Shown here piece by piece: positions 483-64,000 of a DNA stretch of 64,000 nucleotides. This DNA comes from Antedon mediterranea (Eukaryota; Animalia; Echinodermata): assembly GCF_964355755.1 (NCBI RefSeq), contig NC_092677.1, forward strand, positions 5,230,101 to 5,294,100, given 5' to 3'. The position numbers and the translations under genes were made by a program. The notes under the pieces are model-generated. The model did no database searches. It saw only the letters and a list, made by a program, of their open reading frames with translations, and was not told the DNA's origin. The stretch's first letter is position 1. The number at the start of each line of letters is the position of its first letter.

Positions 483-3400
483 ACAAATCCTGTTGATGAA
501 GATAGTGAACTTTTAGCAGAACATCATGAAACATCTGGTGGGTATAAACTTTGCTATTTATTTATTTTCTTGATTACTTGTTTTAGCTTCAGGTGGAACA
601 TGAATAGTTTATTTTTTACTTATTATTCATTCCAAAAAGTCCTGTTTCAAAAGAGTTGAATGTACTCTTACTTCAATCAATCAATCAATCAACTTAATTA
701 TTTTTTTTTGGCTTAAGGGAGTAGTTAATAGGGGGCCAAACTCAATCAAGCAAACTATTCTGTCTCAGAAATTAAATCATTGTATTGTTGAAATTGCTAA
801 TGAAGTACAGGTTTATTTATTTTTTTATTTTTTAGAAGTATTAATATTACAATATCTATGTTTGTTCTATCTTTATTTAAGGAGGACCCTTCAACATCGG
901 TCATACAGTAAGAATCTTTGTTTAAAAACTTTAAAAGCGCAGTAGCATGCACAAAAAAATGTTTGAATATTGTTATAGCTAAGTTATGCAATCACAATTT
1001 CTATGACAATAATTGTGTAGAGATATGCATCAATTCTGAAGCATTTATAGAAAATATAATCTGTGTCTATCTAGATTCCAGTATTAAAATTAAGTTTTTT
1101 TTAAACATGTGAATATAATAATCCAAGCAATGTTGATTCAAGTGGTTATGGGCTGAGTGTAAGGCCGGTGTGCCGCAAAATAAAATATGTTCTTCATTGG
1201 TAAGAATTAGTCTTCTTGGACTGGATGTCCTGTTTACAAACCTGGTTTGTGAGAACCCAGTGCATCCCAGTAGTGGTTACCCCATTGTACTTGGCCATCT
1301 ACCCCTGTTTCACTTGTACACAATTTAGCCCAGTTACGCTGCAAGCTGGTATTTAGCACTTAGAGGTTTCATGACATCAGGCGCTTTATTAGTCCAGGAT
1401 ATTATTAAAATTTATTAAAAAGTCTCCCCAACCAAGATTTGAACCCGGACTACTGGGGCTTTTATGGTATTGTTCAAACCCCATTGGATAGCGACTCTTT
1501 CACTCTTGGTGTGGTACAGCCGAACAGCACTAGTCCTTAAATTGTACTCACCAGAGATCAAATTGATATTCCCTCATCTTTCAGTATTTTAAAGCAGGAA
1601 CAATTTTTCCATTTTTGTTCTATATAATTTTTGAGATCATGCTAATGTGTTTTCTCTTAATTTTCAGCTTTTTACTTTTAAACCTATTTATGTTGTGCAA
1701 GCTGGCTATAGTGATTCATACAGATGAACTAATATTGAATTTGTATTATTATATAGTCTGTTTTAATCATTTGTTTGTGATCAACACTTTCATGAAAACA
1801 TTTACAGTAGTACTCTTTATGGTTCTATATTTTCTAAAGGTTGTTGATTGATTGATTGAACAAAAATGTAACGTTGGTATAGAAGAAGTATAAACATAAA
1901 TTAATATATTTTTATTTATAAATTAAGATTACGTATGTATTAGGTATAGTTAAAACAAAGACAATGACCGCTCAAACTCCCAACTGTACAGTATAGTTTT
2001 GTTTTTTGCTATATACCATCATCACAGCTGTATTCTTTAAGTGTTGTATTATTTTTTATTTCATGTTCTAGCTAAAGACTTGAATGAAAGGTAATGTTTT
2101 CGGTATTTGATATTTATTTATTGGGATTCTTTTATGATAAAGATACACTTCCAGGAAAGCTTTTTTTTGTTCATATTTACCCATTTTTATTCAAAATTAC
2201 ACAAAATTAACCTTTCACTAACATATTCAACTTCATTCATTATATGAAGTACTTCATGCTATGACCAATGATTTACCACAGCCATTTCTATTTCTTTCAC
2301 TGATTTAAAACCTATCTGCTAGTTACAGTATGTACAACACATCTACATTCATGCAAAGCTAGTGAAATGCTTATAGTTTTTTTGCTATATGAGAATTGCC
2401 AAAACCTTACCTTTTATAATTTACAAGCCATGAACAATGGAGGATTTCAGATTCTTCAGATCAGCAAAAAACAAAATAACATAATGTGAATAGGATTCCT
2501 TATGCTTAATTCATGCATGCTTTTTTACAAAACATTTGATGAGCGAATGTTGAAGAACAGCCAGTGAGCAATCTATTTTTTTTCTTCTTTGGCAAACAAT
2601 TGTGTTTAGCTTTTTTGTTGTTTTTGTTTTTTGTGGCAATTTATCTTTATCGGTTTTATGGTTTGCCAGGCTAATTTGGTAGTTTACCTTTTTCCTTTCA
2701 TTATCTGCTGTCCCTACTGTACTATAATAATTTACATACTTTGCATACATCATTTTGGTTGCTTTATTTACCATAGATTATATACTGTCCTTCATTGCCT
2801 GCCTGTGTTCACCTGTTTTGTTCGTACCTTGGTTGCAGTCTTCTACAAAATACACTTAAATACATAGATATGTAGTATATATTCTTGCCATTCACTTCTC
2901 GCTGCATCTGGCCATTTATATTATTTATAATATGACTATATTGACCATATTCAGTATCATGTATCATATACATAACCTTACCAGATTATTTCTTCAATAA
3001 TTTGCCATTATTTGTATCTGTAATATTTGATTAAAAACTCATTACCATAAATTACATTGAATATTATTTTATACATTATATTACATTTTTTTTTTATAAC
3101 TTCAATTGGGTATTTTTAGCTTTGTGCATCTTTATTTTTTGAGTATTTTAAACACAAGCTTGCTTTTATCGTTTATGAATGGGGAGAATGTTTCTTGTAC
3201 CACATATTATACTAAATAGATAATGTTTAAAATATTAACTGTGTGTTTTGTAGAAAATAAATACTTAAATTTTATGTTTCACTTTATTCAATTTAACTTT
3301 TGTATGATTTCATCCATTAATTAAAGGAAACAATTTACATAGAGGAAAGTTGTTGAACGTGTATGTCAAAAGATCAGCTTATAGATTTTATTGTAATTTG

Positions 3401-6400
3401 CATAATAAAAATGCAATTTTGTTATATGAATTTACCACAACTTTTGATTATTAATTGATTAGTTGATTGATTGATAGTAGTCAAATTAGAATTTGTTTTG
3501 AAAAAAAAAGAGTTATATAGATCACATCACTACTTTCACTGTAAGTCCATATCTGGAATGCTACACAATTTTTTTTTTCATAAAATGTTAATATGGTACT
3601 AATATATTTATTATAAATTATTTATAATTATTACAAATATAAATAAATTACATTGTAGAGGGAAAGACCAATGAACTCTGATCATTTCAGCACCATTTGT
3701 AAATCCTATATTCTTTCTTAATTTTTTATAATATATGTATATTTTTTTGTTTTACAGATCTAAAACTTCTTACTCAAGTAAGTAACATGTTTTTTTTTGT
3801 GCAATTTTGTTTAACTATGTACAATAATTTATTTATCTTCTTCCTAGGACATTTATTTACATAACACATTTGCCCAAGGTATATTATTATTAAATACAAA
3901 ACATTAGATGCAAAATGAATTATTTGTTTTTTAGAAAAAAAACTGTTAAAGTAATATTTCTGGAAGCCATTAAATTAATGAATTTAGTTTTAGAAGGAAA
4001 ATTATAAAATGTCAGTGGTAAATGTAGTGATGCATTAGACAATGCCCATGGACAATGCACATTTTTATTTATTTTTACTTTCACAATTAAAAGTTGTAAA
4101 ATAAAGAAATTAAATTTTAGATGATTTCATTTAATGTTATTTTGTGTGTTTTTAAGTGTCTACTAGTGGTAGAGGAAGAATTAGCCTAACGGTTTCAAAT
4201 CCTGTGAGATATGATTCAGGAGAGTACAACTGCAGCATAGAGGACAATAGACAGCAGTATCCAGGTGTAAACAATTTATTTTTTTATTGTAAGTTTTATT
4301 TTCTATTTAAATTAAATCATTTATTAAGATGCTTAATTTTCAAATTTAAAATACTGTATCACTTCGGTAACTGTATATGTTGCTGAGTAGAATGTTTACA
4401 CATATTTTAGGAAACAGAATAGGCCTACCTCATTTATTTCTTTATCGATAGAATTTGTTATATAATTTTAAATGATTGCATTCATTTGATTGATATTTGT
4501 ACTATATTTAAATTTTTATATGAAGGGATTGAGATGATAGATCCCAAGTACTCGGCAGAACAAGGTATCAGTAATTTTGAAATGAAGTGCAGATATGAAC
4601 CAGCAGATATGCCATTAACAGGTTACAAGTGGAAGAAGATTAAGGAAGATGGCACAACAGAGATTGAGGATTGTTCTAAAGATTCTAGATTTGAAGTAAC
4701 AAGTGACCAATATAACATTCTGTCTTTGAAGATAAAGAAAGTAATACTTGGTAATGCTGGCAAGTATCAATGTGAAGTGAAGCCAATTGATGGAGACAAA
4801 ATACTGAAAGATACTACACAGCTAACAGTTAAAAGATGTAATTTTTTTTACAATTTACCTTAGCCTCTGCCCAATTGTTGTGTGATTTAGTTTTTCTTCT
4901 TAAAATGTGAAGAACAACACATTTTTAAATAATCAATCACTGTGTAGAAGACTTTGCATGTGGGTGTCTCAGTCCACCTCCACACAAGGCAGTAAAACTG
5001 ATCATTTTGTTAATCAATAGACAATTTTTTAGAATATTTATTTTGATTAATCAACTTTATGATAAGCAATTGCTTTACAGAATTATTATCTCTGTCTCTT
5101 TTCATAGATGCCATCAAAATTGATATTCCTGATGTTATTACTAATGAAAGTGTGAATGTTAAATTGTTCTTAAATCTAACATATGTTGATGATACTGCTA
5201 AAATATCCAATGTCAAGTGGTATAAGCAGGGTAAAGGTGAAACAAAGATGCTGCTGACATCATTACAACCACCATATTCAACACCAGGCTGTCAAAGCGC
5301 ATATGAGGACAAGAGTAAGGTGTACCTTAAGATCAACAATGTTGAATCGAAAGATGCAGGAAAATACGCATGCGAAGTGCAAGTTGAAGGAAGACAGAAA
5401 ATATACAGTTGTTTTGGGAGGTTAGAAGTTAAAGGTAATTTACTAGAATATTATGCCTATAGACTCCCGTAAAATGAATCAATTAGGCTGCTATAGAATG
5501 ATAAAACTTACACTTCAATAATAACCAATAACCATTTGATATGGTGGGTCTAAAATCAACTTGGTTGGGCAGGTTTGTCCACCATGTGCCCTTTTTTTAT
5601 GGCCAACGGGTGTCCCAAAGATTACACAATATGGCCAGTGAGCATTTGTGTCATTTTGTTTGTGGATGTCGTTAATGAATTATCTATTAATTTTTTATGG
5701 GGATGAAAGGTTTTTTTTTTATAGGAAAATTACCTGTTTATTTTTTTGTTTGAAACACATCCTTTGTTGACCATCTTTTATATGTTGAGATATTGTACAC
5801 TATAATTTTCAGGTTTTTTTCTTATTACAGTTTTAACAATGGAAACGAGTGAATTGCACTGTGTCGTAGGAGGAACTGCTACAATTCCTTTTTATGTGTC
5901 ACCAATACATAAACAAAATAAAGAATTTATCTTTTATAAATTTGAACTTGATAAATGGAAGAAAATTGCTGATAATAGACATACAATTATTAGCAGATTT
6001 AAAGTTAAATATAGTGAGGAAACGCTGACAGGTTTCCTTGAAATTTCTAAAGTTAAATCTTCTGATGCTGGTGACTACCGTTGCCAATGTGTGATAGAAG
6101 GAAAGGATGTTTACTCTACAACAAGCAGGTTGAAAGTTATCAAAGGCTGTAAGTATACAATATTAGGCCTAAAAATATATTTGTTAAAAGAGGAAAGGGA
6201 GTGTAAATTAAGTTACAGCCCCTCATGAAATGTCATAAAATAACAATAACAAATAATTCATCAGTTCAGTCTGTCGTTCTATGCACTCATGGGTAAGAGT
6301 GATGCAGCAATTGCAACCAACGTGTTTGGCGTTTCAGAATCTCAATGTCAGACGCATTACTGAAAATTTCTAATTATGCAATACTTTATAGACCTAATAT

Positions 6401-9400
6401 TATTCTGGCCCTTGATTTTCTATTCTTCCTATGTGTGTGTGTTTTAATAGAAGTGGTTCCAAGGGAGTTATAATAAAGAATTAACATCGCTTGGCTTCAT
6501 CTTGTCTTTAAATATTATTTCCAAAGTAACGCAAAGTATGAAATCTTTATTTCTGTACTAAAGAAACCAGAATGAGTATCCCTATATTTCCAAAATTCAT
6601 AATCAGAAATTCAAAATATTATATACTATATCTTTATTGTTAGTTTGGTTAATTTATAGAACTAGCAGTGCTAAGTTTGTTGAAATGCTGTATTTTAAAT
6701 AATTAAATACAACCGTGATACTGCGTGCAAGATGTACGGTACAAACAAAAATTATTGCCTGATAAACTTTTTTTTTGTCTGACAATAATATTAATCAATA
6801 TATTTTAATCGCCAATAAGAAATACACATTCAAATATTACTTTTATATCAAGATATTTGTTTGTTTTATTTTTTTTTCTGATGAAATGGTACTGTTGTAT
6901 ATTATTATTGTGATAGTAATTTCATCCAAAATATACTATTTTTACTTTTACTAGATATGAAACTCAATGATTGTCTTGTGATAAACGGGGAAAAGGCAGT
7001 TTTAACTTGCAAGTATGGACTTGAGAATCAAGTGAAATATGTCAATTGGTATAAGAAGACAGGGGATGAATCTCAACAGAAGAAGATAGAGAAAGTACCA
7101 GAAAGATGTAAAGTAACTCATAATAGCCTTAATCAAACAAGCCTAGAGTTCCCGGAAGTGACATTGGCTGATGATGGGGAGTACATATGTGAACTTACAA
7201 CTGCTACAGAAATAACCAAAAGCAAACTTTCAGAAATACATAGATCATCTGCACACTTGCATGTACAGTGTAAGTAAATTGTGTATTAAGCTGGTTATTT
7301 ATCAATCAAATTGTGTAAAGGTAGTACAGTAGTTTGAAGAAATATCGTTTTACCTAATAATAGTGTAATAAGATAAGATAAGATAAGATAAGATAACTTT
7401 TATTGATCCTCAAAAAGGAAATTCATTGCTCGTCATAATAACAAAGAAAACACTATAAAAACAATAGCATAAAACCATTCATATAAAAACATCTAAAAAA
7501 TTACAATATAAAATTATCTTCTTGACTTCCTGTTGTACTGGATGATACCGGAGGGAATAAAGGATTTAGCAAATCGATTTGTTTTCACACTGAGGAGCCT
7601 CAATCTACCACTTGGATTAAGTTGGTCTATGATCACTTTGTGGAGAGGATGAGAGGCATCCGACTCAATGCGTTCGAAATCTTTCTGGAGGTGTTCTAGG
7701 TGCACATCGGTAAAGGAAGGCAGTTCCAGACCAATCATTTTACCAGCCCGACGGATGAAAGTTTCAAGGCGTCCTTTATTCCCTCCGGTAACATTACCAG
7801 CCCAACAGGAGAGGCAATACGTCCAAACACTACATATAACGGATCTATAGAACGAAAGTAACATCAAATCACAGGAGTTAAATTTATATAAAGTTCTCAT
7901 ACAATACATTCTGGGACTTAATTTTTTGCTGATGAAGTCTATATGGTCTCCCCAACTCAGTTTATCATTGAAAACAATTCCTAGATACTTGTACTGGTCA
8001 ACAATTTCAATTTCTTTACCTTTGATAGTGATTGGTTGAAAATTAAATTTATGTTTAGTCCTAAAATCAATGATCATCTCCTTTGTTTTTGATGCATTTA
8101 TTTGGAGATAATTATCGTCACAAAATTTAACAAATCTTTGTATTTCGCTACGATAATTTTCATCATTGTTTGAAACTATGAGACCAATAGTACTAGTGTC
8201 ATCAGCGAATTTAACAACGGGGCAAAGCTCATCATTTAAAGATCTGTAATCCGCCGTATACAAGGAATATAATTTAGGTGCGTTGACAGTACCCTGAGGA
8301 ACACCGGTGTCAGAGGTTACGATTTCTGACTTAACACCATTAATATTAACAAATTGTTTTCTATCACAAATGAAATTTAAAACTAAACGAACAATCGGAC
8401 GGGGAAACTCCATATTCAACATTTTGTCTGCTAAGATATGGGGTTGTATGGTATTAAACGCAGATTGAAAATCAAAATACATAATACGTGCCGAGTGGCC
8501 TTTCTTTACATTAACTAGATGTGAATACAATTTATGTAATTTAAAATAAATCGCATCACTGGTACTACGGAGTGATCGGTAAGCAAATTGCAACGGGTCT
8601 AACACTTTTTCAGCATAAGGTTGCATAATTTTTAAAATAATACGTTCCAATATTTTCATCGCGACAGACGTGAGTGCAACGGGTCTCAAATCATTCATGC
8701 TGTTAATCTTAGGTTTCTTAGGTACCGGTATTATGCATGAAAGTTTCCAAATATCCGGGAACGCATGATAAGAAAGACACATATTGAAAATAAATGTAAA
8801 TATGCCATCAAGGTGAGGAGAGCAGACCTTAAGTACTCGTGGTAGGATTCTATCCGGCCCAGCAGCCTTCGATGAATTGAGTTTCATGAATTCGTTATGT
8901 ACATCAGAAATGCTTATACTAAATTTGGGATCATCTTCAGTCACCCGACACAAGCTAAATAGAGCCTCTCTTTCTTTTTTAAAATCATGAACATTAAAAC
9001 GGTTATAAAATTCATTTAACTCATTAACATATTGCACAGTAACATTCGGAATCGAGGTGGGTGTATTACCACCGTTTGTGTAACCACTCATAAGTTTCAT
9101 ACCCTGCCAAACTTGTTTCATATTATTAGACCTGAAGTTATGTTCAACTTTTTTCCTATAAATGTTCTTCTGTTTCATTATTTCAGATTTAATCTCTCTA
9201 GTCAATATTTTCATACGATTAGAGTCGCCCATCTTAAAGGCTTTACGTTTCTCACACAACAGTAATTTAACGCCTTTCGTGATCCATGGCTTGTTGTTAG
9301 GGTAGATTTTCACTTTTTTAACTGGAACGCATTTATCAATACAAAAGTTTATGTACGAGCTCACTGCATAAGTAATACTATTCAAATCTTCATCCTCCGT

Positions 9401-12400
9401 AAAAATATCCCAATCGGTAGATTCAAATTCCGCTATCAGGGCTTCCTCGGCTTCAGGAGACCATTTACGTACATTAATAATTTTTGGTTGGCATGTCTTA
9501 TTTAACGGGCGATATTTAGGACTGATTGGCTTTTCTCTATGCTTTGGTAATATACAGTACTGTATATTCAATTTTCTTAAATACCCAAACAATGGTAGGC
9601 CTACAGGCACTATTTTGTTTGGATATTCCATAATATATATTGTCATATGATTTCAAACGGTTAATAAATTCATTAATATATGTTTATATTGTAAACTGAT
9701 TTCATCAAAATACCTTTAGATATGAAAATGAGTGATTGCCTTGCAACACATGGTGATAAAGCTGTGTTAACTTGCAAGTATGGAAGTGAGAAACCAGTAA
9801 AAGCTGTCAATTGGTACAAGAAGACTGGTGATCAAGACATAATGATATTTACTTCTGATAAGTCTCAAGAGAAAAAGATAAAAAATGTGCCAGAAAGATG
9901 TAAAGCAAATTTTAAGGAAACTGAAACAAGCTTAGAGTTTGAGAAAGTGTCATTGACCAATGCTGGAGAGTACATGTGTAAAGTGAAGGAAGAACTTCCA
10001 TCACATACAGCATCAGCACACTTGCATGTACAGTGTAAGTTGCTTTCTACATATTTCTTGTCTACATGAAAATTGATATTATAATACAATTGATTGACTT
10101 GAGGAATATAGTTAAAAATACCCATTTTGGTCTAAAGGCAATATGATACCTGTCAGATGAATTACTGTAATTGTGGGGTATTGTTTGATAAATTAAATGT
10201 TGTTTCCAACTTTGATGTACTGTACTGTATAATCCACAATTAATTGTAAAGACTTGAAAAAAGTTATCAACCTCCAGATCACTAACCCGGAACTCATACC
10301 TTTCGCTCACATAGCTTACACATAATATAATCATTGTTTATGAGTTATAACAATAATTTTCTTTATTCAAGTAGGGAGTTGTAATTACAATTTAATAATG
10401 ATTTTTGAGATGTTTTCAAGAGGGGGTCGAACATGATTTAATTCCATGTTTCAAGGAAATACATACATTATTTTATTAGATTAAATTGTTATTCAATTAA
10501 TGTTGAAGGCTAGGCTGATGCAACATTTGGTACTCCCTTTTGACTGGTGGAGCAGGAAAATTCAGAACTGGGTTAGTATTGGAATTCATAACAAATTATG
10601 ACACCTAGCTTGTCATTAATTTCCATTCCCTTATTTTTATAGGCGATGTGTTTACTGAACAAGTTAAAACACACAGGTAAATTGATTTCCATTCAAAAAA
10701 ATTATTTTCTAGTCTATTTTATTTTTGAAAGTCAACATCTAGGTTTGAATTTGACTTTAAAATAACTTCTTAATTTAAGAGAATTATCTTGAAATTGTAC
10801 TAAAATTTATACATCTCTACATTTTTCTCCTTTTAGACACCCTGCAGTAGTCTTTATAAATTCTCATTTTATCATCTTTTGTGAGGAAAATAACTCAGAT
10901 GTGATAATGAGAAGAGGAAAATTGAAAGGCAAGAGTTTGATTGAATGGGAAGAAACACAAATCATTTTAAATGAAAAGGAAACAAGGTAATTAGTATTGT
11001 GTTGACCGACATTGGCAAACATTGTTTGCTGGTCATTATATTTCATACATTTAAGAAATCAATTATTAAGTTTCATTTGCTATGTTATTACCAATGACAT
11101 TAATATCTAAGAACATTTGTAAATTTTATTTAGAAACAACTACGGTACAAAAGATGTCTCCAAAAAGTGGACAATATTGATTCTAAAAATGTGAAACATT
11201 TTTTTTAATAATTCTACAAATTTACTATACAGTTTTCAGAATCTAGTACCAATTGTGACAGATAAGAAAAATGGAAAAATGATTCTAATGTGTGTTAGAC
11301 AAAATAACAACACAAAAGAGAGGAAGATAATAAGGATGAAATCTGATGATAATGGAGAGAATTGGAAAGAACCAGAAGATGTACAATTGGATTTGAAAGG
11401 CTTACCCATAGATTTTATAAGTTAGTATAAATTTGTATTGAAGTTGATATTAAATATCTGAGCTGTACATCGTGGTTTTGAATATTAGTAATATTCAAAA
11501 CCATGATTTGTGCCTCTATGTAGGTAAATTTTTTATACTTTTCTAATTTCAGTACTATTATTATTTAGATTATAAACCCATTTACTGATACCATACACAA
11601 GAAGCAACAATTGAAACAACCAGTTTTTCACAAATGTTTTATGTACTTACCAAAATACTGATTTGTTATAGGGGTTTTGTGTATGTTTTTTAAATAACAT
11701 TGTATAAAGAAAATGTTTAATTTTATCTATCTTGTTGCTTGTTGAACAATTTTAATATATATTTTTTTTACTTTATGTAGTAAACAGTATAAATGTTTGC
11801 AATTATATGAAATATGTATAAATTGTTTTTCAGGCCTTGGTCATGGTGTATGCTTACATTCAGGAAAATTGGTTGTTGCAGGAGTATGGATGCTAAAGGA
11901 TAATGAAAGCATAGAAAGTAATTTAATTAAATAATCTTATAAATTAAGGAGGTCCCCAAATATTTATTATGTACATTGGTGATCGTTGTTGAACTGTATA
12001 ATTCCTTAAATGATTATATTTGTTTTAGATATGTCAAAGATCTTTAAACTCCTCCAGTCTGCTCGCTTGAATTGTGTCATCTGTGAACCATGCATTAATT
12101 CTTAATTTGAATTCAATAATAACTCATCACAATGACCCAAGAACAGCAGTTGATCTAAACATTTGTTTCTGTTTATAAAGTCCAGTACTATATCAACCTG
12201 CATGGAGAGATAATAGTTAACACAAATGTTGCTGAGGTTTTCATGTTTATGGTTTGCCTTTTTTTTATTGGAAATTGTTGTTTATTTTTCAGAAAAACTG
12301 TGTGTGATGACAAGTACTGATGATGGTGACACCTGGGATATTGTAACAGCTGTTAAACCACAAGATGCTACTTTAGGAGAACACACACAAGTAAGAAACT

Positions 12401-14412
12401 TGGAAATGCCTAGGGTTTCATTTCTAATGATCATGCCATTTTGTCATATACAGTAATATGTGTGGTGTTCCACAGGGATCCATCCTTGGTCCGCTTTTAT
12501 TTCTGTTATTTATTAATGATTTAAATTATATTAGTGATTGTGCTGAAATTGTTATGTTTGCAGATGATACAAGTTTATTTATTAATCATAAGGACATCTA
12601 CCAAGCTATTATTTTAATGAATCAAGAACTTACTAAAATTGCAAACTGGTTAAAATCAAATAAGCTTTCGTTAAATATTAAAAAAACCAAATTTATTATT
12701 TTTCGTTCAGTTAATAAACTAATCCCCCCCAACATTCCTAAATTATATTACGGCATCAGCGAAATTGAAAGAACTAAAGCAACAACATTTCTTGGCATTT
12801 TTATTGACGAATACTTATCTTTTATTTCTCATATTAATACAATTTCATTAAAACTATCAAGAGTGGTCGGTGTCCTCAATAAACTCAAACATGCCTTGCC
12901 TTCCTCCGTTTTACTATTAATTTATAAATCACTCTTTTTGCCACATTTAATTTATGGTATAACCGTTTGGGGTTTTACTTCAAAAATTAATTTAAACCGT
13001 ATTTATATTTTGCAAAAAAGAGCTTTAAGATCAGTTTATAATGTTCATTACCTCCACCATTCTGCTCCTCTTTTTGTCTTATCTAATACACTTAATATTT
13101 ACGACTTACTTACAAAAAATGTTGCTTTATTTATGTTTAAATTCAAACATAATCAACTGCCCAGAATTTTTGATACTTATTTTCAAACTTTTAGTTCAGT
13201 TCATAATTATAATACCAGAAATAAATTTGATTATGCTTATGATTGTTTTAATACGGAGGTTGGCAAGCATGATATAACTTTTCAAGGACCAAAAATTTGG
13301 AATTCTTTACCAGATGAAATTAAAATTATTAATTTTATATCTTCATTTAAGTTCAAACTACATGAATACCTTGTTTCTACTATTATTATTTAAGTTGATC
13401 ATATATCTGTCTTAAGTCAAATAATAACTGCATTTGTTAAGTTAAATGTCTTTTTATGTTCATTATCATATATTATATTTATTTCTTACCTTACCTTACT
13501 TTTAATTATGTTGCCAGGACCCCACATTTTAAAGCTTAAGCTTCCTGTGGGGTACCCCTTTTTCTCATTTATTATCTATTATTTTTAGAAAATGTTAACT
13601 GTTTTTTTGTGTTTTTATTTGAGAAATAAAAATTATTGATTGATTGATTGATATGATTTGTTTATTAGGTTGTTGAATATGCAAATGATGATGTTTACAT
13701 CAGTTGTTCATTGGAGGAATGTAAACAGCGTTTCCATGTATACAGTGAAGAAGGATTTAAAGCGTTTGATGTCAAGACTGAGGATGCACAATTAGAGGCA
13801 AATCCAGAGTGCCAGGTATACTCTACAATCTTGTTCTATTCTACCTAAGTTATTGCGTTCTACTGCATTTATTAGCGTGTGGACGACAGGTATATAGTAT
13901 CACACGGTTTGCCTTGTGTGTAATTTAACATCGTTTTTATGCTGAAGTGGGAAATTAGTATTATAGAGGATACGCGAAACAAACATACCCCATAGTTATT
14001 TGAACATTATTTAAAGGATTTTTAAATTGCAATACTTGCAATTATTTGCTTTAACATTTATATGATGATAATATAATGTTATGTTATTTTGAATTATATT
14101 ATTATCTAGGGTGGTATTGTACGCTTAACAACAAAGACTAATAAGTTCTACCAAGTAGCAGTGACAAGTCATGGAAACGAGACAAACAAGGAGCTTACAC
14201 TTTACTTAAGTAAAGATGGTTGTAAAACCTGGTGTCAGTTTAACACACTAGGTGCAGTGAATGCAGAAGAATCTGACCTAGCTTACTACAGTGTAAAAGA
14301 AGGAGAAGAACAAGCAAAAGGAATAGTGTGTGTTTACAGTTATGGTTCAGAAACAAAGGGGTATAATATTGGAATGCAGTTGATTCCTAACAAAGAAATT
14401 ATGTTAATGTAA
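483..14412 (+). CDS. Gene L1, 3' portion (5' end lies upstream of the window): multi-Ig receptor with C-terminal degenerate sialidase domain. Exons 483-537, 2072-2090, 3758-3777, 4157-4288, 4526-4837, 5108-5434, 5831-6148, 6955-7269, 9720-10034, 10643-10676, 10837-10986, 11233-11420, 11834-11917, 12293-12390, 13669-13815, 14110-14412
   Basis: All exons are bounded by AG/GT and join in one open frame. Ig hallmarks are present (WYK, DxGxYxC). Exon-by-exon paralogy with L2 (38567-48867), including the 19- and 20-nt micro-exons. Stop TAA at 14410-14412. Confidence 0.85.
7368..9540 (-). mobile_element. 5'-truncated non-LTR retrotransposon (Rex1/Babar-like LINE) in an L1 intron, with an uninterrupted RT ORF (7514 to about 9540)
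   Basis: RT motifs KAAGPD, NDLRPVALTS, LDPLQFAYR, DFQSAFNTIQPH, TGVPQG, KFADD. (TTATC)n 3' tail at 7368-7396. Clade assigned from remembered motif style. 5' boundary approximate. Confidence 0.85.
10643..14412 (+). other. GH33/NEU-like sialidase beta-propeller domain of L1 (7 exons), catalytically degenerate
   Basis: HRHPAV (RIP-like), VIMRRG, Asp-boxes SDDNGENW, STDDGDTW and SKDGCKTW, LGHG..LHSGKLVV, ECQGGIV and ESDL occur in the same order as in vertebrate NEU2/3/4. Confidence 0.8.
12458..13652 (+). mobile_element. 5'-truncated LINE (CR1-group, L2/Crack-like) with RT C-terminal ORF 12458-13393, in an L1 intron
   Basis: CGVPQGSILGPLLF, MFADDT, NKLSLNIKKT. 3' UTR hairpin near 13517-13558, AATAAA at 13625, (TTGA)n tail at 13636-13651. 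Confidence 0.85.
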
Positions 14413-23188: not shown

Positions 23189-23210
23189 AAGGCCTACCTA
23201 GGCAGTATCA

Positions 23211-29899: not shown

Positions 29900-29921
29900 A
29901 AGTATCGTAGTTTTAAATTAT

Positions 29922-34619: not shown

Positions 34620-37600
34620 ATGGGATTCATCCCATTTCTGTTCTTTTTCAGTACTTTGTATGGTGTGTAAATCTACTAGTACGAATCATATTTTTGAAAA
34701 TTTTGAAAAATGGTAAGTTGCTTTTGGTCTTTTTTAAACGTACACACCTGTGGTTCAATTGTTTTCAAATCTTTATTACTGAAAGGAATAAATAATAAAA
34801 TAAAATATTCCAATTTACTGAGGAATACAATTTGAAAGGCTATTTCAGAAAAAAATACGTAAATTAGTGCAAATCACATCAATTTTACACTAAAAGTGTT
34901 ACGTAACAATTGTGTTGCTTAATTTGTATAGGAGTACATGGTGAATTAGTGACATCATTTGACCAGACAGCCAAGGAAGGTGATGCTGAAGTGGTGATAA
35001 CTTGTGATTATTCACAATTTACTTCTGCACCTGATGCAATACTTTGGGATGAACTAAATGAAGATGGAGTAAGCATTGATCCTGGTTTTGTTAATTATAA
35101 GAGGATTGAAAATAGACGTTTTACATTAAATATAACACAGTTTGGGAGAGCTGATTTGGTGATGTCATGGCCAATGAAAAATGATTCTCAACGGATATTT
35201 CGGTGCCAGATACAAAAAACAAATGGAGATACTGAAATATCAAATCCATCTATTCTTACTGTTTATTGTGAGTAACAGATTAAATTTTAACTTTGTCATT
35301 AATGATTATTTAACTACTAAAACATAGATTCTGTCAGAGAGCTAGTAAGATGATCATAGGACACACGGATCTCCAATCCACAACCTCTGGATCACTAGCC
35401 AAGGCTTCTAGAGGTATATTATAGGTTCTAGCCCATTCTAGACTATAATGACCAACAGGTAGATATGCTACAAACAACTACAGTAATTCATGCACTGTAT
35501 ATTTTTTATTTTTCTCAGACTTAGATCAACCACTTCTTGAGGCCTCAGCAAGTACTGTCTACGAAGGTCAATCTGTGACCTTTACCTGTAGTAAACCTGG
35601 AGATCCTATTCCTCACATTACTTGGTATAGAGATGGACAGACAGTCAACACCAACAATCCTAGATATGAAATTGCAAATAACAGTACAGAGTCCGTTCTT
35701 AAGATTAAATCAGCTACTAAAGGAGATGATGGGAGATATACATGTAAATCAGAAAGTGATCAGTTTATAGGAGAGGATGCTAAAACAAGTGTAAAACAGT
35801 TGATTGTATTTTGTAAGTATAATTACTTCAATTTGCATTGCTATTAACAGTTAGGGTTTTTAGTTTAGCATTATCGCCTTATTTTTTTAATATTCATTTT
35901 TGATACTAGAAACGCATACCCTTCTAAGTACCCATCCTCAATTGTTCTTTCTGTTTCTGCAACAACATTTATTTCACCTACTACATGTTAGACTAATTTT
36001 GGATTTGTCAAGATTGCTTAAAAATCTGCATGAACACTACAGGTATTTTAGAAATGTAACCATTCAGTATTATTATGGGATGGTGTGTGGAAACCTCGTT
36101 GAAAAAAGAAGAAAATGTCCTGTGCTTACAAAATATCAGCTTTTCATTTATTTTATGTTAAAATATTATCAAATCAAGTTAAGATAAGTGTTATTGTGTT
36201 TGATTTGTTTGGGTCCAGGTCAAAGTACTCCCTTTTGTTTGTTGGTTGGTGTGGCAACTTCTGTTTAATTGATGGCTATGTTTACATGACATGTCTGTAA
36301 ACACTACCAAACATTGTGGTAGCTAGAAAAATGTGTATGCCTCACTATTATTAGCAAACAGACAAGATTGTGTTTATCTGGGTTTAGATTTTAAGAACTG
36401 AAAACTCAGATAAAGAATATATTTAAAATTGTTCCTCTTTGTAACCATCCTCTTCCCCATCCCTCAACTCTAATGTTATATACAAAACACAAATTGGGTT
36501 TGTTTAAATGAGTCTAAATCAAAAACTTGGACTCATTTTGAGACAAGTTTCTCTTTTGGAAGTAATTCTCAGGGTGCTAATTTTAGTTGACTGCATAAAT
36601 CATCATGTCTATTTATTCACATCTGTAAACAACAATGTATTATAGTCCTGCGGTACGTAAATTTAAAAAAAAAAACAGTTTTTTACGCTGAAATTACTGT
36701 GTATTCGAAAACCATATGTGGGCACGACCTAGATGGTACGCGTCTACTACAATTAATGAGTAAAATGTTTATAATTAATTTAAGAAGCAATTCAAGTTAA
36801 GTCAACCTAATGTTCTACAAACAAATTCTATTACGACAATAATGCTAAATTAATTTACATCTTCTTTAGATATTGCTGTTACATTTACATCAAAAGATAG
36901 TTTAGCAACATGTACAGCAGAGGGCCATCCCAAGCCATCATCAGTATTGATATTACAAAATGGAGAAGTGGTTAAGGAAGGAGAAAATACAGCAACTATA
37001 GAAATTAATGATGAGATGTGTCAATCAAATCTTACATGTTATGCAGAAAATGGAAAGCTTAATGGCACAACAACATTAGAGAAGTGTAATACAGGTAATA
37101 CTGTACTAATTTTATTCACTGGTAGAAGAATGTAACACTCATGTACAGGATATTAGATTTCCAATTTAGCTGGAAAAGAATGACAATAAAAATCTTTCTT
37201 GCTAGTTTCTTTATCATTCCTATAAATCCCCAATTTCATTAATTGTGTAAATAAATGTTAATTTGTTTTATTTTATATTATCCATAATCAAGTACTGTAT
37301 TACTTACATTTTAGACATGGTTGTATGTTTCAGTTAAATTTTATTTTTTAATGTAAGTCAGTTGTTGTCAATTCTTACTTTTTAGTAATAATGATGATAA
37401 TAGAAATAATAACTTATTTTTTAGCTTTAGCGTCATTGTACATTGTTCTGATTGTTGTTGGTTTGTTGTTGACATGGTTACTGCTTCTTGTCTGTAAGTA
37501 AAATATCTTGGTCCAAAATTAAAATTACGTTTCTTAAATTCTCCAATTTACTTTTGTTTTATATGTATGAATAGGATGTTACAATGATTGTACAAATTAA

Positions 37601-40600
37601 TTAATATTTTTAATGTATGGATTTTTTCATGTATGATTTTCTAATATATTTTTAATGTCTGCTTTTTTAGATTTTATTCTTTACAAGAATATTGAGTGGA
37701 GCAATACAGATATTGATACAGTGACAGTTGAAGGTGGTAAACCAGTTGAAATGGGTTTTAAATACCGTCCAAGTATTGCAAGGTTCAAGAGTTTTGAAAT
37801 AAAGAAAGACAACAAAGTGCTTGGTTCAAATCAAAAGCAATTCAGTAGTTGTAAAACAGTCTGTCAGTTTGTCTGTTATTGCTGTTTTTACTTTTGTGGA
37901 TTTTTTTGCATTGAATACTGCATCAAATCATGTAAGTAATATTTTTTCAGTCTAATGAAGTTACCATATAATTATTTTTGTATGTTGATTCTGTTTTCTT
38001 TATTATTTATACAAAGTTAAATTGCACTTTTTTATTTTATAGAAGACAAAAATTGCAAAAAAACAACAACAGCAAAGAGATAATAATAATACATTAGATG
38101 AATGTTTTTTTTTATTTAATAGATCATTATAACAAAATGAAACATGGACCAAGGTGAGTTTTATTTTGTAAAATTTGGTTAATATTAATAAAATAAGTAT
38201 TTTTTTAAGGTATAGTAATTGATGACTGAAAGTTTACAAACTAGTTTACAGTAATATTATAATTTTTTTATCTTGAACACTACAGGTGTGTTGAAGAGAA
38301 TCAGATGATGGTCAGAGAAAGAGAATGGCCCGATAGTTCAGATGATCGTTTTGTTATAATCAAATCAAATAAGGATGCAGAAACTGAAGACTGGCGAAAG
38401 GTTGTTTTTTGAGCATTTTTGTTCTCAATTCTCAAAATATATTTTTTAATTTTACTCATTACTAGTAAGAATTCAACGAAATCCAACATGCTTTAAATGT
38501 TGTTGGTAATGGATAAATGAAAATTAACTACAGTATATAATATGTGTGTCTTGCTTTATTTCAAAGATAAGTCCTGAGGATGAAGATATTAAACTTTTAT
38601 CAGAACATCAAGGAACATCAGGTTAGAGCAATTTTAATATACTAAAAATAGAACAAAATACAAATTTTTGAATACCGTATAAGCCTAATATTTTAATGTT
38701 ATGTTTGTTCAGATTGTTCTTCTGAAAGAATAAACAATTATCAGTTATGCAATCGGTTGTGTGTTGGTGGTTACATTGGATTATCCTCTAATTGTGAGGT
38801 TTAATTTCTTGCTTTCAAAGGTGTCCTACTGATATTTTTATTTATATCTTGAAGTCTAAATTTGTACTGTTTATGTGTTGTATTTTGTATGTTTATTGTT
38901 TTAGCAAAAGACTCAAATGAAAGGTAAAACATTTTAATATTTTATAATCAAGCTTTCAATTAATATGCAGTTCACTTCTTTCTTAAAATATTGACAACTA
39001 TGCTTACGATTCTCTGTTGTGAACATTATCTACAAAGTACAAAAATATGTTAGAACCATGTACGATAAAAATTGGGAGTTGGATAGCCGAGTGGTTAGGA
39101 GAATTGACTGTCATACAGATAGACCCGGGTTCAATTCCCGACAACTCCCAGTCCACTCAGCTGTAAATGCTAGGGAGAAAAAAGGCGACGTGGAAAGAAA
39201 CTGGCCACTCTACCACATAATGCCAAGGCTTAGTACAATGAGTTCCTAACAGCTCATTCCCCTACGTTCAGAGAACACGGGACTCACCTCACGATGAAAA
39301 TTGAATTTCATTTCTAATTTGGGTCAGTGTTTAAATTACTTTAACTCGCAAAATCAGTTTCAGTGGCCCCAATGTAGTTTCGTACCCAACCCTTCAAATT
39401 ACTCAAAATTGTTTCAATTATATAATCATCAAACCGTCTCACGGTCTACAACATCCTGCAAGCATACAATTGTAAAAAATTGATATTTAAAAAAAATTTA
39501 TAACCCTTTTTAGTCAATAATTGAGCACCTTCATAAATCCATCGACAGCTTAGCTACGTGAAAATCATTGCTACGCTACAATATGGCGGCCGGATAACAT
39601 GTACAGTGGCGTGGGCTCGTTCACCTAGTTGTATTGTGTGGAATAGTGTAAAATTTATTTTATCAAAAAAAATTAAACCGCTTTAAAATCTAAATCAAAA
39701 ATATTCATTTACTACTACATGTAATACACTTAACAGTGATATTTATTAGGGCGTTTTACAACAACAACCCATTTTTCCCTTACTTAAATTACTCTATAGA
39801 TAGAAATTAAGTTAAAATTTCATCTCACAGTATTGTTAGATACACTTGTGAAAAACGTAATATAACAATTCTTTGTGTGTCGGCTCATTGATCAGATATT
39901 TTGCCCCACTAAGAAAAGACACCATTTTACTAGATACTCTGTACATTATGGATACTTAATTCAAAATGAATTCTTAGTTGGGACTCAAAACCACAACCTG
40001 CAATTAGTTTGCCCTCCAGATCACTAGCTTGGCATACATCTAAACCATCAACAGTCAAATGTTGTAAGATCGAAACTGGCTCTACCAAACGCTGGGCCAC
40101 ATTCAAGCTTACAACATTTTACTGTTGATACTCGCGTCTTGCCTATGTTGGTTCTTGTTATCTTTTACAAAAAAATGTTATTATTTAATTGTGTGATGTT
40201 ATTTTTTTTTCCTGTTCTTTTTAATTGCTATCTCTTACCATATAGGTATCTTCATGCTCTTACCATATATATTATATTGTTTTTAGAATCTCATATATTA
40301 TACGATTATATTATTACATATTGATCATTACAGATGTATTTGAATTTATTCATCAACATCAGTGTGAGTTATTTCAGTGGTGAGACTATAGTACAATTAC
40401 AAATATTTTGTTTTTTATGTAGTTTTAAACAGACAGACTTAATTGATATACTGTATGTAAGATATCATTTCAAAACTACTGTAGAAATCCACTCCAGGAG
40501 TGCATACCTCCACCTACTGTAAAATTCACCTACATAAGATTTCTCTGGGGAAAAAATATATATATATATTTGTGTGTCTTAATGCTGTGTGCGATTTAGG

Positions 40601-43600
40601 CTAATTTCACTACAAGAATGTGTATGCGAATTTGGTGTAAAGTTCAGTTGAGTATTAACAATAGAAGAGGAACGGCAAAGACAAACAGATGAATTTGAAA
40701 AGAAATAAAATTTAAAACTGCTCGTATCAAAAAAGCTGTAAATTAAATCAAATTATGTTTTAACATTACAAATCACAAATTATACTTGGTGCCTCTTGTA
40801 CAAAAATGACGGTTTTTGGACAAGTAGTTCTTGAGAAAAGGCAAATTCAGTTTACTTATTACTTTAAGACTGCTCGCCAGCTTTTGAAAATTCTGTCCTA
40901 TCTTTTAACACTAGCAGATCTGAAAATAATACAAAAAAGTGGTCCAGAATTGGGACTGTGGTCTTTGACTTAAATATTTTGCAATAACTTCTTGAGTAAT
41001 CCTGCTAACAAACAAACAGACAAATGTGATCGATTACATATTCCTCCTTAGTGGAGGTAAATAACATTTATCTTTTTTATCTTTTAAATTAAATGTATAA
41101 TCATAGAAAACACTTTTTTTTTAGCACTGTTTTTTAAATCCCAGATATTTCCCTGATACACTGTATTTATATAAAGTTTACTATTTTTATTTTTATTTTA
41201 GATCTAAAACTTCATACTCAAGTAAGTAATAACAGAAATATTTTCAATTTTGAATTACAGTTAATTAAGCATAATTCACACAACATACATGTTTTTTTTT
41301 TTTAATTGTGCGTTTAAGTGTCTACAAATGGTAGAGGAAGAGTCCTCCTAACAATTACAAATACTGTGAGATCTGATTCAGGGGAGTTCAACTGCAGTAT
41401 AAAAGGCAGTAGACAACAGCATCCAGGTGTCAACAATATATTTGTTTGTTGTGAGTGTAATTTTTTCCTTACAGTATTGGAACATATTATTATATTATCA
41501 CATTTTGTTTCTCTTTATACATTTTATAGTTCATTTTATTACTAAAATGTTTAATTTTTGTAATTCTATGTATAATCCCAAAAGTAAAAGTCTAATATAA
41601 TTGTAAGAAGCAAATTCCATAAATTGCATAATATTTGTATATATCATTTTATTATTTAGGGATTGAGATGACAAAACCAAAGTACTCAACAGAACATGGT
41701 ACCAGTAATTTTGAAATGAAGTGCAGATATGGACCATCAGATATGCCATTAACAGGTTACAAGTGGAAGAAGATTAAGGAAGATGGCACAACAGAGATTG
41801 TGGATTGTTCTAAAGATTCTAGATTTGAAGTAACAAGTTACCAAAAAGACAATATTCTGTCTTTGAAGATAAAGAATGTTGTACTTGGTGATGCTGGGAT
41901 GTATCAATGTGAAGTGAAGCCAGTTGATGGAGAAAACATGCTGAAAGATACTAAACAGCTAACAGTGAAGATAGGTAATTGTTATATTACTATAAATTAT
42001 GGCTTTAACATGATAATTATATTTTTAGAGTTGATGATTCACAAGATACAATAGCATCTGAATTTAATGGTTATTAATTTTGAACGAGCTTGATTGTACA
42101 ACAAAAATATTTCACCAACAAAATAGAACATTATTGTTCTTTGAATAATCAACATGTTGTTTGTAAGCACCCTGTGGTACACATTTATAATTTAACATTT
42201 ATTTGCATGGTAAAGAGAACCTGTTTTTTTAATGATGGTATAACAATTTATTTATAATTTAAGTCCAGTTGAATTAGCCTAGTAAAATATGGGAGATTAT
42301 TATTTATTATTTTTTTTATTGACTTTACACATTTGTTCTGCTTGTTGGTGGACTATTTTCTCTGTGCAATAACCATTGCCATCTGTCATCTTTTTGCTAA
42401 GTGCATGATATTTATGTCACGTCTCCTCTTGCTGGAAAAGTTGGCTAGATGCACATGTGTATTCTCGTCTCATCATTCCAAACAAGCCACATTTTGAAGA
42501 CTCTGAAAAAATATTTGTATAATATTTTTGGAACTTAAATCTATTTTTTCGATTTTTTTTCCATTCATCCTTTTTTTTTTTTTGCAATTTACATTAAAGT
42601 AAATAGAAAAGGTTTGTAATTATAGCTATCCCCCAGATGACTTTTTTTATGTTTTTCATAATAACCATAAAGCATACAGTAAGAAATTAAAAAAATACTT
42701 GAATATAGGTGAAAGTAATGTTTATTATGATCTGAATAAAATAAAAATGTAAGATGATGTTTTTTTTAGATCCTATCATAATGAATATTCCAGATGTTAC
42801 TACCAATGAGGGTGTGAATTATGTTAAATTGTTCCTAAATCTCATGTCGTTTGATAATCCTATTAAAATATCCAATATCAAATGGTATAAGCATGAAGAT
42901 GGAGCAAAGAAGCGGCTGACATCATTGCAGTCACCTGATCCAACATCACGCTATCATGTTGGAGATGTGGATGAAAGCACATGGTGTCTTGTAATTTCAA
43001 ATGTTAAATCTGAAGATGAAGGAGAATACACATGTGAAGTAGAAATTGAAGGAAAACAGAAAATGTACAGTGTTTCTGGAAGTTTAATAGTTCAAAGTAT
43101 TATGTTTAAAAGCATGATAATAATTCTTAGACCTATCAACTCTTTATCTTAAGATATTAGTGGAAGTCTGCCATTATGTTGTATATTGATATTATTTATT
43201 TTATTTATTTCTCCATGAAGTAAATTCTTGAATGATAGCAATCAAAAACTGCACAGAAGATTGAAATATTTGTTAGAGATAGAGTATACAATGTTTGATT
43301 ATATTAGTGTAGATGTGTGTATGTTTAAATGATAGCATATAGTAGATAAGAATTAGGTGAAGGTGGTAGGTGGATGTAATGATCTTGTATATCAATTAGA
43401 CTATCATGCAATAAATTGGTTAATCAATATTATATATATATTAATAAAAAATGATATTTGTTAGTATAAATTTCATAATATAAAATATTGATATAAGAAT
43501 ACTAAGTATCATAAGTTTAAATTTTAAAATTTTAGCCAATCTTGTCAAAGGTCGAGCGCCGCGTTTCGATATTTAATATTGAACTTGACCGGACGTGCTT

Positions 43601-62000: not shown

Positions 62001-64000
62001 TTAACACAATATCGCAAAACAGAACACCAATAAGACTGGAAATTGGCACAGCCATTCTTCTTAACCAGAAATAGAAAACATTTTTATAAAATTGTGGTCA
62101 GTTGAAGAATTCACTAATTGCATTTTTAAAAATCACAGTAAATACTGCTGCAGGATATTTAACTGTAATGTATATTCATTTAAAACATTGATAGAGGTTT
62201 TTCAACGATAAGATGTATTTCCATTGAAATAACTTTGTTTTGATAATTGTTTATAATTGATAATAAATTTGTTGTTAACAGTTATTTCAGAAGATTCAGG
62301 ATCATCATATGCCATAATTCTGATTATTTTGTTTGTTGGTTTATTGACATGGTTTCTTCTTCTTGTTTGTAAGTATCATGTACTGTATTACTTAATGTCA
62401 CTTTGGAATATCATAAGCCCTTTTTATTTCAGTGAATTTTAATAACAGTATTCACAAATTTGAAACCCTCAACTATGTTAGGGTTACATGGAGTACTATT
62501 AGAATGTTTTTATTTAGAATTTTTTATTTAGAATTTTTTATTTTTGGGATTTTGATTATTAATTGTAGTTTGATGAGTAATGAAACGAAATAAATACTGC
62601 ATGGACATAGATTACATAATATTTCATAATGATATTGATACAAAGATTGCTTTTACAGTATATTGGTAGACCAATAGGATTTATTTTAATTTAAAAAAAT
62701 TTATTTTGTTTTAGATTTTATTTTTTACAAGAACATTGAGTGGAGCAATCAAGATAATGATATAGTGAGAGTTGAAGGTGGTAATCCAGTTGTGATGAGT
62801 TTTAAATACCGTCCAAGTATTGCAAGGTTCAAGACTTTTGAAATAAAGAAAGACAACAAGGTGCTTGGTTCAAATCAAAAGCAATTCATTAGTTGTAAAA
62901 CAGTCTGTCAGTTTGTCTGTTATTGCTGTCTTTACTTTTTTGGATTTTTTTGTATTGAATACTGCATAAATAAAGGTAAGTTACATATTTTAATTTTGTT
63001 AGTAGGTCATTGTTTCTCAAGTCATCATTTCTGACAGTTCTAAAAGTTAGTAGTCTGATGTTGTTATTATTGATATATAAAAGTTTTTAAATACAGCACT
63101 TTTTTAGTTTATTCTGCTGGGAGAATGATACATTGTTTGTATATCATTTCTGTTCATTATACCTGTACATTAGATGAATATTTTCTTATTTTTATTTAAT
63201 AGTTAAATACAACAATAAAGATAAAAAGAAACATGGAAGGAGGTGAGTTGAGTTTGTAACATTGGTGGGATTTATTTTGATTATTATATTTTAGCTAATT
63301 ACAAATTTTATTGAAAGGTTATGGTTAATAAAAGAGAATGTCCTGGTGATGCATAGGTCTTCTTTGTAGTTTAATATTATTATCTTGTATTGTGTTCCTT
63401 ATAGCAGTGGCAATAGAGGTGGTGAAGAGTATCAGATGATGGTCAATGAAAGACAAGGTCCTGATGGTGCAGAGTTACCTGCTGTTGTAATACAATTACC
63501 TAACAAGGATACAACAACTGACGAAACTGCTGTACAACAACCAACAGCAGCCACTGAATCTGAACAAAGTTCAGAGGTATTGTGAAAATACTAAATCCTT
63601 CATTCCTTGAATTGAAAGTACAAAGATACAAAAAGAAAAAAGACATGTTTGTTTAATAAAGTATTGTGTGTTTTGTGGTGTTTCAAAAAGGAAATTTTGA
63701 CTCCTCCAATTTGATTCCTCTTTGGTACTTAAATTCTGTTTTTTACAATAAAATGTTATCCTTTTTTTTCTAATTAGAGTAAAACCTATTCTTTGGGACA
63801 CCTCTATTCAAGGGCCACCCCAATTAAGGGGATACTTATCTGTGAAATGAATGAGACGCAATTTATTATATTGTAGCACTATGGCCAACCTTATTGTGAG
63901 CCAAATGTGACCCTTATGGGTTTTACTATATTAACAAAATATAATTGTTTTTTTCAAAGACAAATCCTGATGACGAAGATACTGAACTTTTAGCACAACA
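59019..64000 (+). CDS. Gene L3, 5' portion (continues beyond the window). Exons 59019-59064, 59260-59595, 60289-60597, 60737-60961, 61179-61445, 62291-62368, 62715-62975, 63203-63242, 63405-63576, 63960->64000
   Basis: Signal MHLLVGVVIFLVFTNEAHC, then V, I and two short Ig exons. TM YAIILIILFVGLLTWFLLLVYFIFY. The 261-nt post-TM exon is nearly identical to that of L2. The last exon matches L1 483-537 and L2 38567-38621. Confidence 0.85.

Follow-up and report, generated by a model that had tools for sequence, protein, structure and literature searches.

A stretch of 64,000 nucleotides from the feather star Antedon mediterranea (NCBI RefSeq assembly GCF_964355755.1, contig NC_092677.1, positions 5,230,101 to 5,294,100 of the forward strand), referred to here as the window and numbered from its first letter, contains tandem genes for immunoglobulin (Ig) domain proteins, two of which, L1 and L2, end in a propeller domain related to sialidases. 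The DNA is AT-rich and of animal type. An earlier sequence-only reading had proposed that this domain is a pseudo-enzyme, and the analysis described here points to a real, conserved pseudo-enzyme in a crinoid receptor architecture that is apparently undescribed.

Gene models and transcripts

Exon models for L1 and L2 were built directly from the window sequence. Each propeller comprises seven exons in an open frame, encoding 334 amino acids in L1 (10643-14412) and 339 amino acids in L2 (Table 1), and the translations are identical to the RefSeq proteins XP_071958844 (P0001) and XP_071958848 (P0004), respectively, which bears out the exons and open frames of the sequence-only reading. A protein search with the last exon of L1 gave eight matches, all from Antedon mediterranea, one of them identical over the exon. 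Contigs from public runs bridge GT..AG introns at predicted exon ends in both genes. Run X4 contains the L2 joins 44417-45025, 47339-47824, 47898-48100 and 48194-48289, and the two L1 joins (Table 1) are found at 90% likeness, to which close paralogs may contribute. The runs are not recorded as RNA; the joins in L1 and L2 are the pattern that spliced transcripts give. Run X4 also skips the L2 Ig2 exon (41972/4-44095/7), as does RefSeq P0004, and contains a 138-base GT..AG skip inside L2 Ig4 (45180-45319). Alternative splicing changes the length of the L2 arm.

The catalytic pocket

Six residues of human NEU2, i.e. R21, R237, R304, Y334, E218 and D46, are essential and completely conserved in the metazoan set according to the available text of a sialidase survey (PMC3431349). 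These positions were located in an alignment that combined 13 domains of the family and 66 further sialidase-like proteins, the latter being the single-domain-sized picks from 139 non-family proteins in the top 150 matches of a hidden Markov model (HMM). The intact Antedon enzyme P0016, whose alignment to NEU2 has an E of 2.7e-30, served as the anchor for the residue columns. Further positions are given by their NEU2 numbers (E39, R41, N86, Q270 and E355). Of the six essential residues, at most R21 is retained in the 12 family rows scored. Non-family rows keep all six in 52 cases and every covered site in 6, one residue is lost in 7, and a single row (1/66), from a fish, keeps just one. Since 52 of the 66 non-family rows keep all six, the loss of five out of six in the family is not a matter of chance.

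The sequence-only reading had compared motifs with NEU2 by eye, and most of its assignments agree with the alignment, including the loss of the same positions in L1 and L2 and the retention of the first triad Arg, which is present in all 11 family rows covering this site. In place of the Arg of AEQR (CEEN/CEKN in the two genes) Antedon has Asn and Anneissia has Gln, and the acid/base loop with Asp46, described before as short, is deleted in Antedon and has Thr or Ser at this position in Anneissia. The second triad Arg, R237 (NAR, changed to SCS), corresponds to Ser, the second S of SCS, with Thr in one family row. Asn, Asp, Lys, Glu, Phe or a gap occupies the column of the third, R304 (QRADL, changed to TNKEL/TNKDL), L1 having Asn. 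At the nucleophile Tyr334 (AYSDL, changed to EESDL) Antedon has Glu and Anneissia has Cys or Ser, and the Glu of LYE (changed to VYS/VYC) is Ser, Cys or Arg in Antedon and is retained in Anneissia.

One assignment did not survive. The Glu of GEHTQ had been taken as a retained Glu near E218; it sits one residue before the catalytic column, which holds His in 11 of 11 covering family domains and Glu in 65 of 66 non-family rows, and it was rejected as the catalytic residue. This neighbouring Glu is itself Gly, Ile or Asn in five members, and the lone Asn listed at the E218 column is the misaligned end of the truncated protein P0011. An HMM alignment to NanI likewise pairs the family His with the catalytic Glu. 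A pairwise alignment of P0013 with NEU2 is off register by one to two residues between E218 and R237 for want of a gap, and the multiple alignment was preferred; in either register L1 has no Arg or Lys within three residues of the shifted column in this region.

Two substrate loops are shortened in the family, loop 3 (L1 exon 3) by about 10 residues relative to intact enzymes. Compared with active GH33 sialidases, the domain has the six-bladed propeller, the Asp-box/BNR repeats and the first-Arg (Y/F-R-I-P) motif, and it lacks the arginine triad, the Y334/E218 pair and the acid/base Asp46. Lectin-like inactive trans-sialidases have a pocket that is intact except for the nucleophile; here five of six residues and two loops are altered. 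Judging from these residues, normal sialidase activity has very probably been lost in the family propeller. The domain combines the features of a pseudo-enzyme, i.e. catalytic residues are lost, selection is purifying, and the exons are spliced and conserved.

A protein annotated as 'sialidase-3' in the fish Nothobranchius furzeri (P0139, XP_015815384) keeps one of the six residues and groups with vertebrate NEUs. It is possibly an independent fish pseudo-sialidase.

Structural model and selection

The AlphaFold model of the L1 propeller has a mean predicted local distance difference test (pLDDT) score of 90.8 and a predicted template modelling (pTM) score of 0.91 (73-row alignment). Its top Foldseek match is human NEU2 (E 7.7e-17), and VIA-align superposes the two backbones with a Z of 38.5 and a root-mean-square deviation of 2.5 Å over 320 residues, bacterial enzymes giving Z 36-37; the structural alignment to NEU2 that the sequence-only reading called for is in this respect favourable, at the level of the backbone. 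An HMM built from nine Antedon domains matched 20 distinct sequences in the PDB at E up to 0.01, all of them sialidases, sialidase fusions or BNR proteins, with C. perfringens NanI as the best match (E 2.6e-7), and the family propeller scored 70.3 bits against BNR_2 (cut-off 31.4). The last exon of L1 is too weak singly, with a best PDB match of E 0.067 and a Pfam BNR_2 match of E 0.12. As modelled, the encoded domain is a sialidase-fold six-bladed propeller.

Ratios of non-synonymous to synonymous divergence (dN/dS, omega) were estimated from pairs of loci inside the window. Omega between the L1 and L2 propellers is 0.56 by likelihood (p 0.005 versus 1) and 0.68 by counting (NG86; 95% confidence interval (CI) 0.47-0.96), the blade-1 exon having 0.23 and the middle exons 0.56 with a dS of 0.51. 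Selection between the two propellers is purifying but weak, and the value near 1 that the sequence-only reading had named as the mark of decay was not found. The high similarity of the last exon noted in that reading is real, but it was rejected as proof of constraint, silent sites being alike too (dS 0.18 versus 0.51); most of it is low dS. Its flanking introns are not clearly closer to each other than those of other exons, matching at 40/60 positions upstream and 27/60 downstream, compared with 29-37 elsewhere, and low dS alone suggests recent homogenisation of this exon. Outside the propeller, cytoplasmic Ig3 (5831-6148 versus 44097-44417) has a dN/dS of 1.34 (CI 0.69-3.0). Omega is 0.20-0.33 in the ectodomain V exons and 0.56-0.64 in the tail, values that come from different pairs, and divergence seems quicker in the tail than at the end that binds the ligand.

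Distribution and ancestry

At least nine propeller-bearing proteins of the family occur in Antedon mediterranea. The HMM search covered 1.84 billion representative sequences; a word-indexed search with the family alignment had found only four Antedon proteins. Three proteins of Anneissia japonica (P0012, P0013 and P0018) have the same dead pocket, two of them fused to Ig domains, and the family was seen in these two feather stars only. A dead Anneissia orthologue, XP_033114277, is labelled 'sialidase-3-like' in databases. Some RefSeq models are truncated (P0007, P0010 and P0011) or have no propeller (P0157-P0159), and in propeller blade 4 of P0012 (XP_033114275) about 27 residues are duplicated, which may be a model artefact. 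The ESM Atlas, in which small clusters cannot appear, returned only ordinary sialidase clusters.

Intact sialidases are also found in both species. P0016 (XP_071940874) of Antedon lies on another contig and has no evident signal peptide at its start, and Anneissia has two partial sialidases whose covered residues are intact (P0014 and P0022); crinoid intact enzymes are the top non-family HMM matches. In a 24-row tree, drawn without NEU1 and the named NEU5 sequences of the survey (PMC3431349), the dead domains form one clade (100/100), and this clade joins the crinoid intact enzymes with a support of 96/92; the Antedon stem branch is long (0.88). A quick tree of 76 rows has the same shape. Descent from a crinoid NEU5-like gene is likely on these grounds, although a different grouping is not rejected either (see below). 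The L1 propeller and Anneissia P0013 are 45% identical, with 29-38% in four whole Ig domains and 46% in a 41-residue Ig half of the same comparison, whereas the intact enzymes of the two species are 51-58% identical to each other; the dead domain and the intact Antedon enzyme share 26%. Because the Anneissia orthologues are equally dead, while Antedon also has an intact sialidase, we infer that the catalytic loss is older than the Antedon-Anneissia split.

Receptor architecture and membrane topology

By prediction, the propeller ends a type-I receptor with a signal peptide, an extracellular Ig region and a single transmembrane (TM) segment, features that are seen in the L2 model, five RefSeq models, hydropathy and the sequon pattern. 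L2 can be read as one frame of 1294 amino acids without stops, comprising the signal peptide, V-, I- and C2-like Ig domains, the TM segment, a split Ig, four Ig domains and the propeller; the join of its ectodomain to the rest is drawn from open, phase-compatible frames and paralog models. TM segment and propeller are joined in the RefSeq models P0001, P0002, P0006, P0009 and P0155, which include L1 and L3. The ectodomain and TM segment of L1 lie upstream of the window. L3 is a third paralog. The translation of its Cys-rich exon agrees with RefSeq P0011/P0155, of which P0155 has the same dead propeller at its end.

After the TM segment, L1 and L2 have a split Ig with a Cys-rich insert, four or five Ig domains and then the propeller. 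The split Ig consists of a first half, the Cys-rich segment, a variable linker and a second half; the halves match positions 4-42 and 63-94 of an Ig HMM, the N-terminal halves weakly (E 5e-4 to 0.05). The Cys-rich segment has about 7-8 Cys in 26 residues and gave seven matches, in Antedon proteins only. It is basic on both flanks and absent from P0009, and its crude insertion energy is +0.7 to +1.8, compared with -5 to -8 for the strong TM segment. If the split Ig folds, this segment cannot cross the membrane. N-glycan sequons number 45 in the ectodomains of seven paralogous sequences (23.5 expected), 32 in the post-TM Ig domains (28 expected) and 21 in the propellers (20.8 expected), the last count coming from six sequences. 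Several post-TM Ig domains have no B-strand Cys. Taken together, these features, which bear on topology indirectly, make it likely that the propeller lies on the cytosolic side of the membrane, a placement that argues against glycan binding.

On its minus strand the window has two further paralogs, with the same three-Ig ectodomain and TM segment and short tails that carry tyrosine motifs. Their TM segments contain Arg and their tails YxxL and YEEP-type motifs, so that they look like paired receptors. P0158 (isoform X2) has two motifs resembling the immunoreceptor tyrosine-based inhibitory motif, at residues 505 and 536, within an optional split-Ig insert; this insert was looked for in the window and was not found there.

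Other features of the window

The remaining features are mostly repeats. Open reading frames (ORFs) of long interspersed nuclear elements (LINEs), reverse-transcriptase-like by motif, occur at three places, two of them in L1 introns and one of these between propeller exons 5 and 6. A short tandem-repeat array is open in several frames, and nested inverted repeats surround fragmented transposase-like ORFs. The end of the propeller last exon recurs in a short orphan copy with 79-83% identity.

Table 1. Coordinates of receptor genes and other features in the window
Feature	Position	Strand	Remarks
L1 upstream exons	483..10034	+	Linker micro-exons, second half of split Ig (4157-4264), five Ig exons
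L1 Ig exons	4526-4837, 5108-5434, 5831-6148, 6955-7269, 9720-10034	+	
L1 propeller exon 1	10643..10676	+	Arg21-equivalent codon split between exons 1 and 2; identical to P0001
L1 propeller exon 2	10837..10986	+	Glu39-equivalent retained (10883-10885); Asn at Arg41 position (10889-10891); acid/base loop deleted
L1 propeller exon 3	11233..11420	+	Asp-box; BNR_2 E 1.2e-5; spliced join 11420-11834 in run X4
L1 propeller exon 4	11834..11917	+	Spliced join 11917-12293 in runs X1 and X4
L1 propeller exon 5	12293..12390	+	His at catalytic Glu218 position (12382-12384)
L1 propeller exon 6	13669..13815	+	Ser at Arg237 position (13708-13710)
L1 propeller last exon with stop	14110..14412	+	Asn at Arg304 (14185-14187); Glu at nucleophile Tyr334 (14269-14271); Ser at LYE Glu (14338-14340)
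L2 signal peptide (predicted) and three ectodomain Ig exons	34620..37094	+	V, I and C2-like
L2 TM exon (predicted)	37425..37493	+	
L2 split-Ig first half and Cys-rich hydrophobic segment	37671..37931	+	Likely palmitoylated anchor
L2 linker exons, split-Ig second half, four Ig exons	38123..45351	+	Split-Ig second half at 41319-41426
L2 dead sialidase propeller, seven exons	45625..48867	+	Positions lost same as L1
L3 ectodomain, TM and Cys-rich exon	59262..64000	+	Cys-rich exon 62715-62975; cut by window end
Short-tailed receptor paralog	16716-20321	-	
Short-tailed receptor paralog	about 52300-55622	-	
LINE ORF	7514-9652	-	
LINE ORF	12431-13393	+	
LINE ORF	25203-27545	-	
Short tandem-repeat array	about 21900-24400		
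Nested inverted repeats	28800-34100		Transposase-like ORFs on the minus strand
Orphan copy of propeller last-exon end	51194-51260		

What the propeller may do

The explanation favoured here, with moderate confidence, is that the propeller serves as a non-catalytic protein-docking module at the tip of a cytoplasmic Ig arm and not as a sialic-acid lectin. Docking to a protein is preferred because a pocket with one Arg of three, without a nucleophile and with an acid at the Tyr position should neither cut nor clamp sialic acid. The cytosol also offers few sialoglycans. In the proposed history, an Ig receptor gene would have captured a cytosolic NEU5-type crinoid sialidase gene at its 3' end, and both this capture and the inactivation would predate the divergence of Antedon and Anneissia. 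In the present receptor, the three-Ig ectodomain would engage a ligand on another cell, the Cys-rich loop in the first cytoplasmic Ig would be palmitoylated and would not cross the membrane, and the cytoplasmic Ig chain would hold the propeller away from the membrane, its remodelled top face binding a protein partner. With short-tailed paralogs sharing the ectodomain, two tail types could give different outputs from similar inputs. The idea of the sequence-only reading that a non-catalytic propeller was kept for binding or as a scaffold is upheld by the intact fold, the lost residues, an omega below 1 and the presence of the family in a second crinoid.

Several points weigh against this reading. 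The match of the fold model to NEU2 is partly circular, active sialidases being included in the folding alignment, and the comparison covers the backbone and not side-chain positions. Selection on the propeller is weak, and in the last exon an omega of 0.68 is not distinguishable from 1. In an approximately unbiased (AU) test, a grouping of the family with five outgroup rows was not rejected (p 0.21). The RefSeq model of L2, P0004, begins after the TM segment, a join of the L2 TM segment to its tail is not among the joins listed from the run contigs, and none of the Anneissia fragments reaches a TM segment. The argument from the split Ig rests on an HMM built from the family's own Ig domains, and in the AlphaFold model of P0157 the split Ig is unfolded (pLDDT under 50). 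The Cys-rich segment, with 19 uncharged residues, is of sufficient length to span a membrane, and the sequon counts come from paralogs and are non-independent.

Other explanations can be set against protein docking. It is unlikely that a non-catalytic cytosolic propeller still binds a small ligand or glycan, such as a free sugar, an oligosaccharide or a microbial glycan that reaches the cytosol, in a remodelled pocket and acts as a sensor. The inner-pocket positions R12, E28, N65, H183, S199 and Q234 show at least 90% conservation among the family rows of the two species, and the inactive trans-sialidase of T. cruzi keeps lectin-like binding; that protein, however, is described in the available text with a single Tyr-to-His change only (PMC5632715), whereas in the family the loss extends to two substrate loops and to two of the three Args that bind the carboxylate, and in Antedon the Tyr site carries an acid. 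Propeller cores are in any case conserved, and 42 of 308 positions do not vary in the family. The Cys-rich segment could instead be a second TM helix, with the Ig chain and propeller turned outward as an adhesion or lectin module, a topology that agrees with its uncharged stretch (Kyte-Doolittle about 1.8), with the 9-18 Cys per propeller, which could form disulfides, and with the failure of AlphaFold to fold the split Ig. Unfavourable insertion energy, basic flanks on both sides, the want of sequon enrichment after the TM segment, the complementary Ig halves around the segment, its absence from P0009 and the post-TM Ig domains without B-strand Cys make this topology improbable.

A pocket rebuilt to new chemistry was the alternative offered in the sequence-only reading, and a relay of His (E218), Ser (R237) and Glu or Cys/Ser (Y334) can be imagined. 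The three columns are neighbours in sialidase active sites, and the part of the proposal that stands is the fixation of His (11/11) and Ser (10/11 rows) across two species. The third relay residue, at the nucleophile, differs between the species, and the small polar residues that now stand in the propeller core may have a structural role; the proposal is weakened and now decidedly improbable. It is very improbable that the domain is a relic in decay that persists through recent duplication and gene conversion. In favour of a relic are the high omega (0.56-0.68), the homogenised look of the last exon, a long Antedon stem branch and RefSeq models that are truncated or propeller-less, yet omega differs from 1, the identity to Anneissia exceeds that of the adjacent Ig domains and all seven exons remain open and spliced. 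A bolder proposal, which must be called doubtful, is a crinoid receptor in which a sialidase propeller with a rebuilt and working pocket acts as the intracellular effector. The pocket would be composed of the kept Arg, Glu, Asn and Gln with the newly fixed His and Ser, and the paired three-Ig ectodomain would act as the switch. Such a propeller would sense a cytosolic ligand, perform new chemistry or be an integrated decoy for microbial effectors that target host sialidases.

An Ig receptor with a conserved and expanded pseudo-sialidase fused into its tail would represent a new receptor architecture in echinoderms. It offers a natural test of the roles left to a sialidase fold once catalysis is gone, and of the presence of non-catalytic docking surfaces on animal NEU enzymes. 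Its significance is limited by the fact that pseudo-enzymes are common in general and by the occurrence of the family in two feather stars.

Relation to known systems

Animal sialidases of GH33 (NEU5 and NEU2-4; human NEU2, PDB 1VCU/2F0Z) share with the feather-star domain the six-bladed propeller, the Asp-boxes and the first Arg motif, and the intact sialidases compared (Antedon XP_071940874, Anneissia XP_033099279 and XP_033120946) are the nearest group in the tree. The domain differs from them in the loss of five of six residues, two short pocket loops and the fusion to an Ig receptor. The available text of the metazoan sialidase survey describes echinoderms as a group with a sharp rise in sialic-acid diversity and names neither crinoids nor Ig fusions (PMC3431349). 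A description of a crinoid pseudo-sialidase or Ig-sialidase receptor was not found in the full-text literature, a search with subscription journals and supplements outside its scope. The inactive trans-sialidase of T. cruzi (Tyr342His) is likewise a sialidase fold in a multigene family that has a binding role without normal catalysis. As far as the available text describes it, that protein has a single substitution, lectin-like binding, residual hydrolysis and a place on the cell surface (PMC5632715). In the feather-star propeller the clamp, acid/base residue, Glu and Tyr are all lost, and its location is likely cytosolic.

Dead-enzyme receptors are known from other folds, e.g. the pseudokinases PTK7 and ROR, the dead cholinesterase of neuroligin and neurotactin, and the 'dead neuraminidase' propellers of paramyxovirus H/G proteins. 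The feather-star receptor would resemble them in that a membrane protein reuses an enzyme fold for protein binding. We know of no such receptor in which a sialidase fold follows an Ig chain on the cytoplasmic side. SIRP, Siglec and Hydractinia Alr are paired, clustered families of Ig-superfamily receptors, and as in these families, the tandem paralogs of the window share a three-Ig ectodomain and differ in their tails, some of which are short with YxxL-type motifs. Unlike SIRP, Siglec and Alr, the feather-star family also has a long tail of Ig repeats that ends in a propeller.

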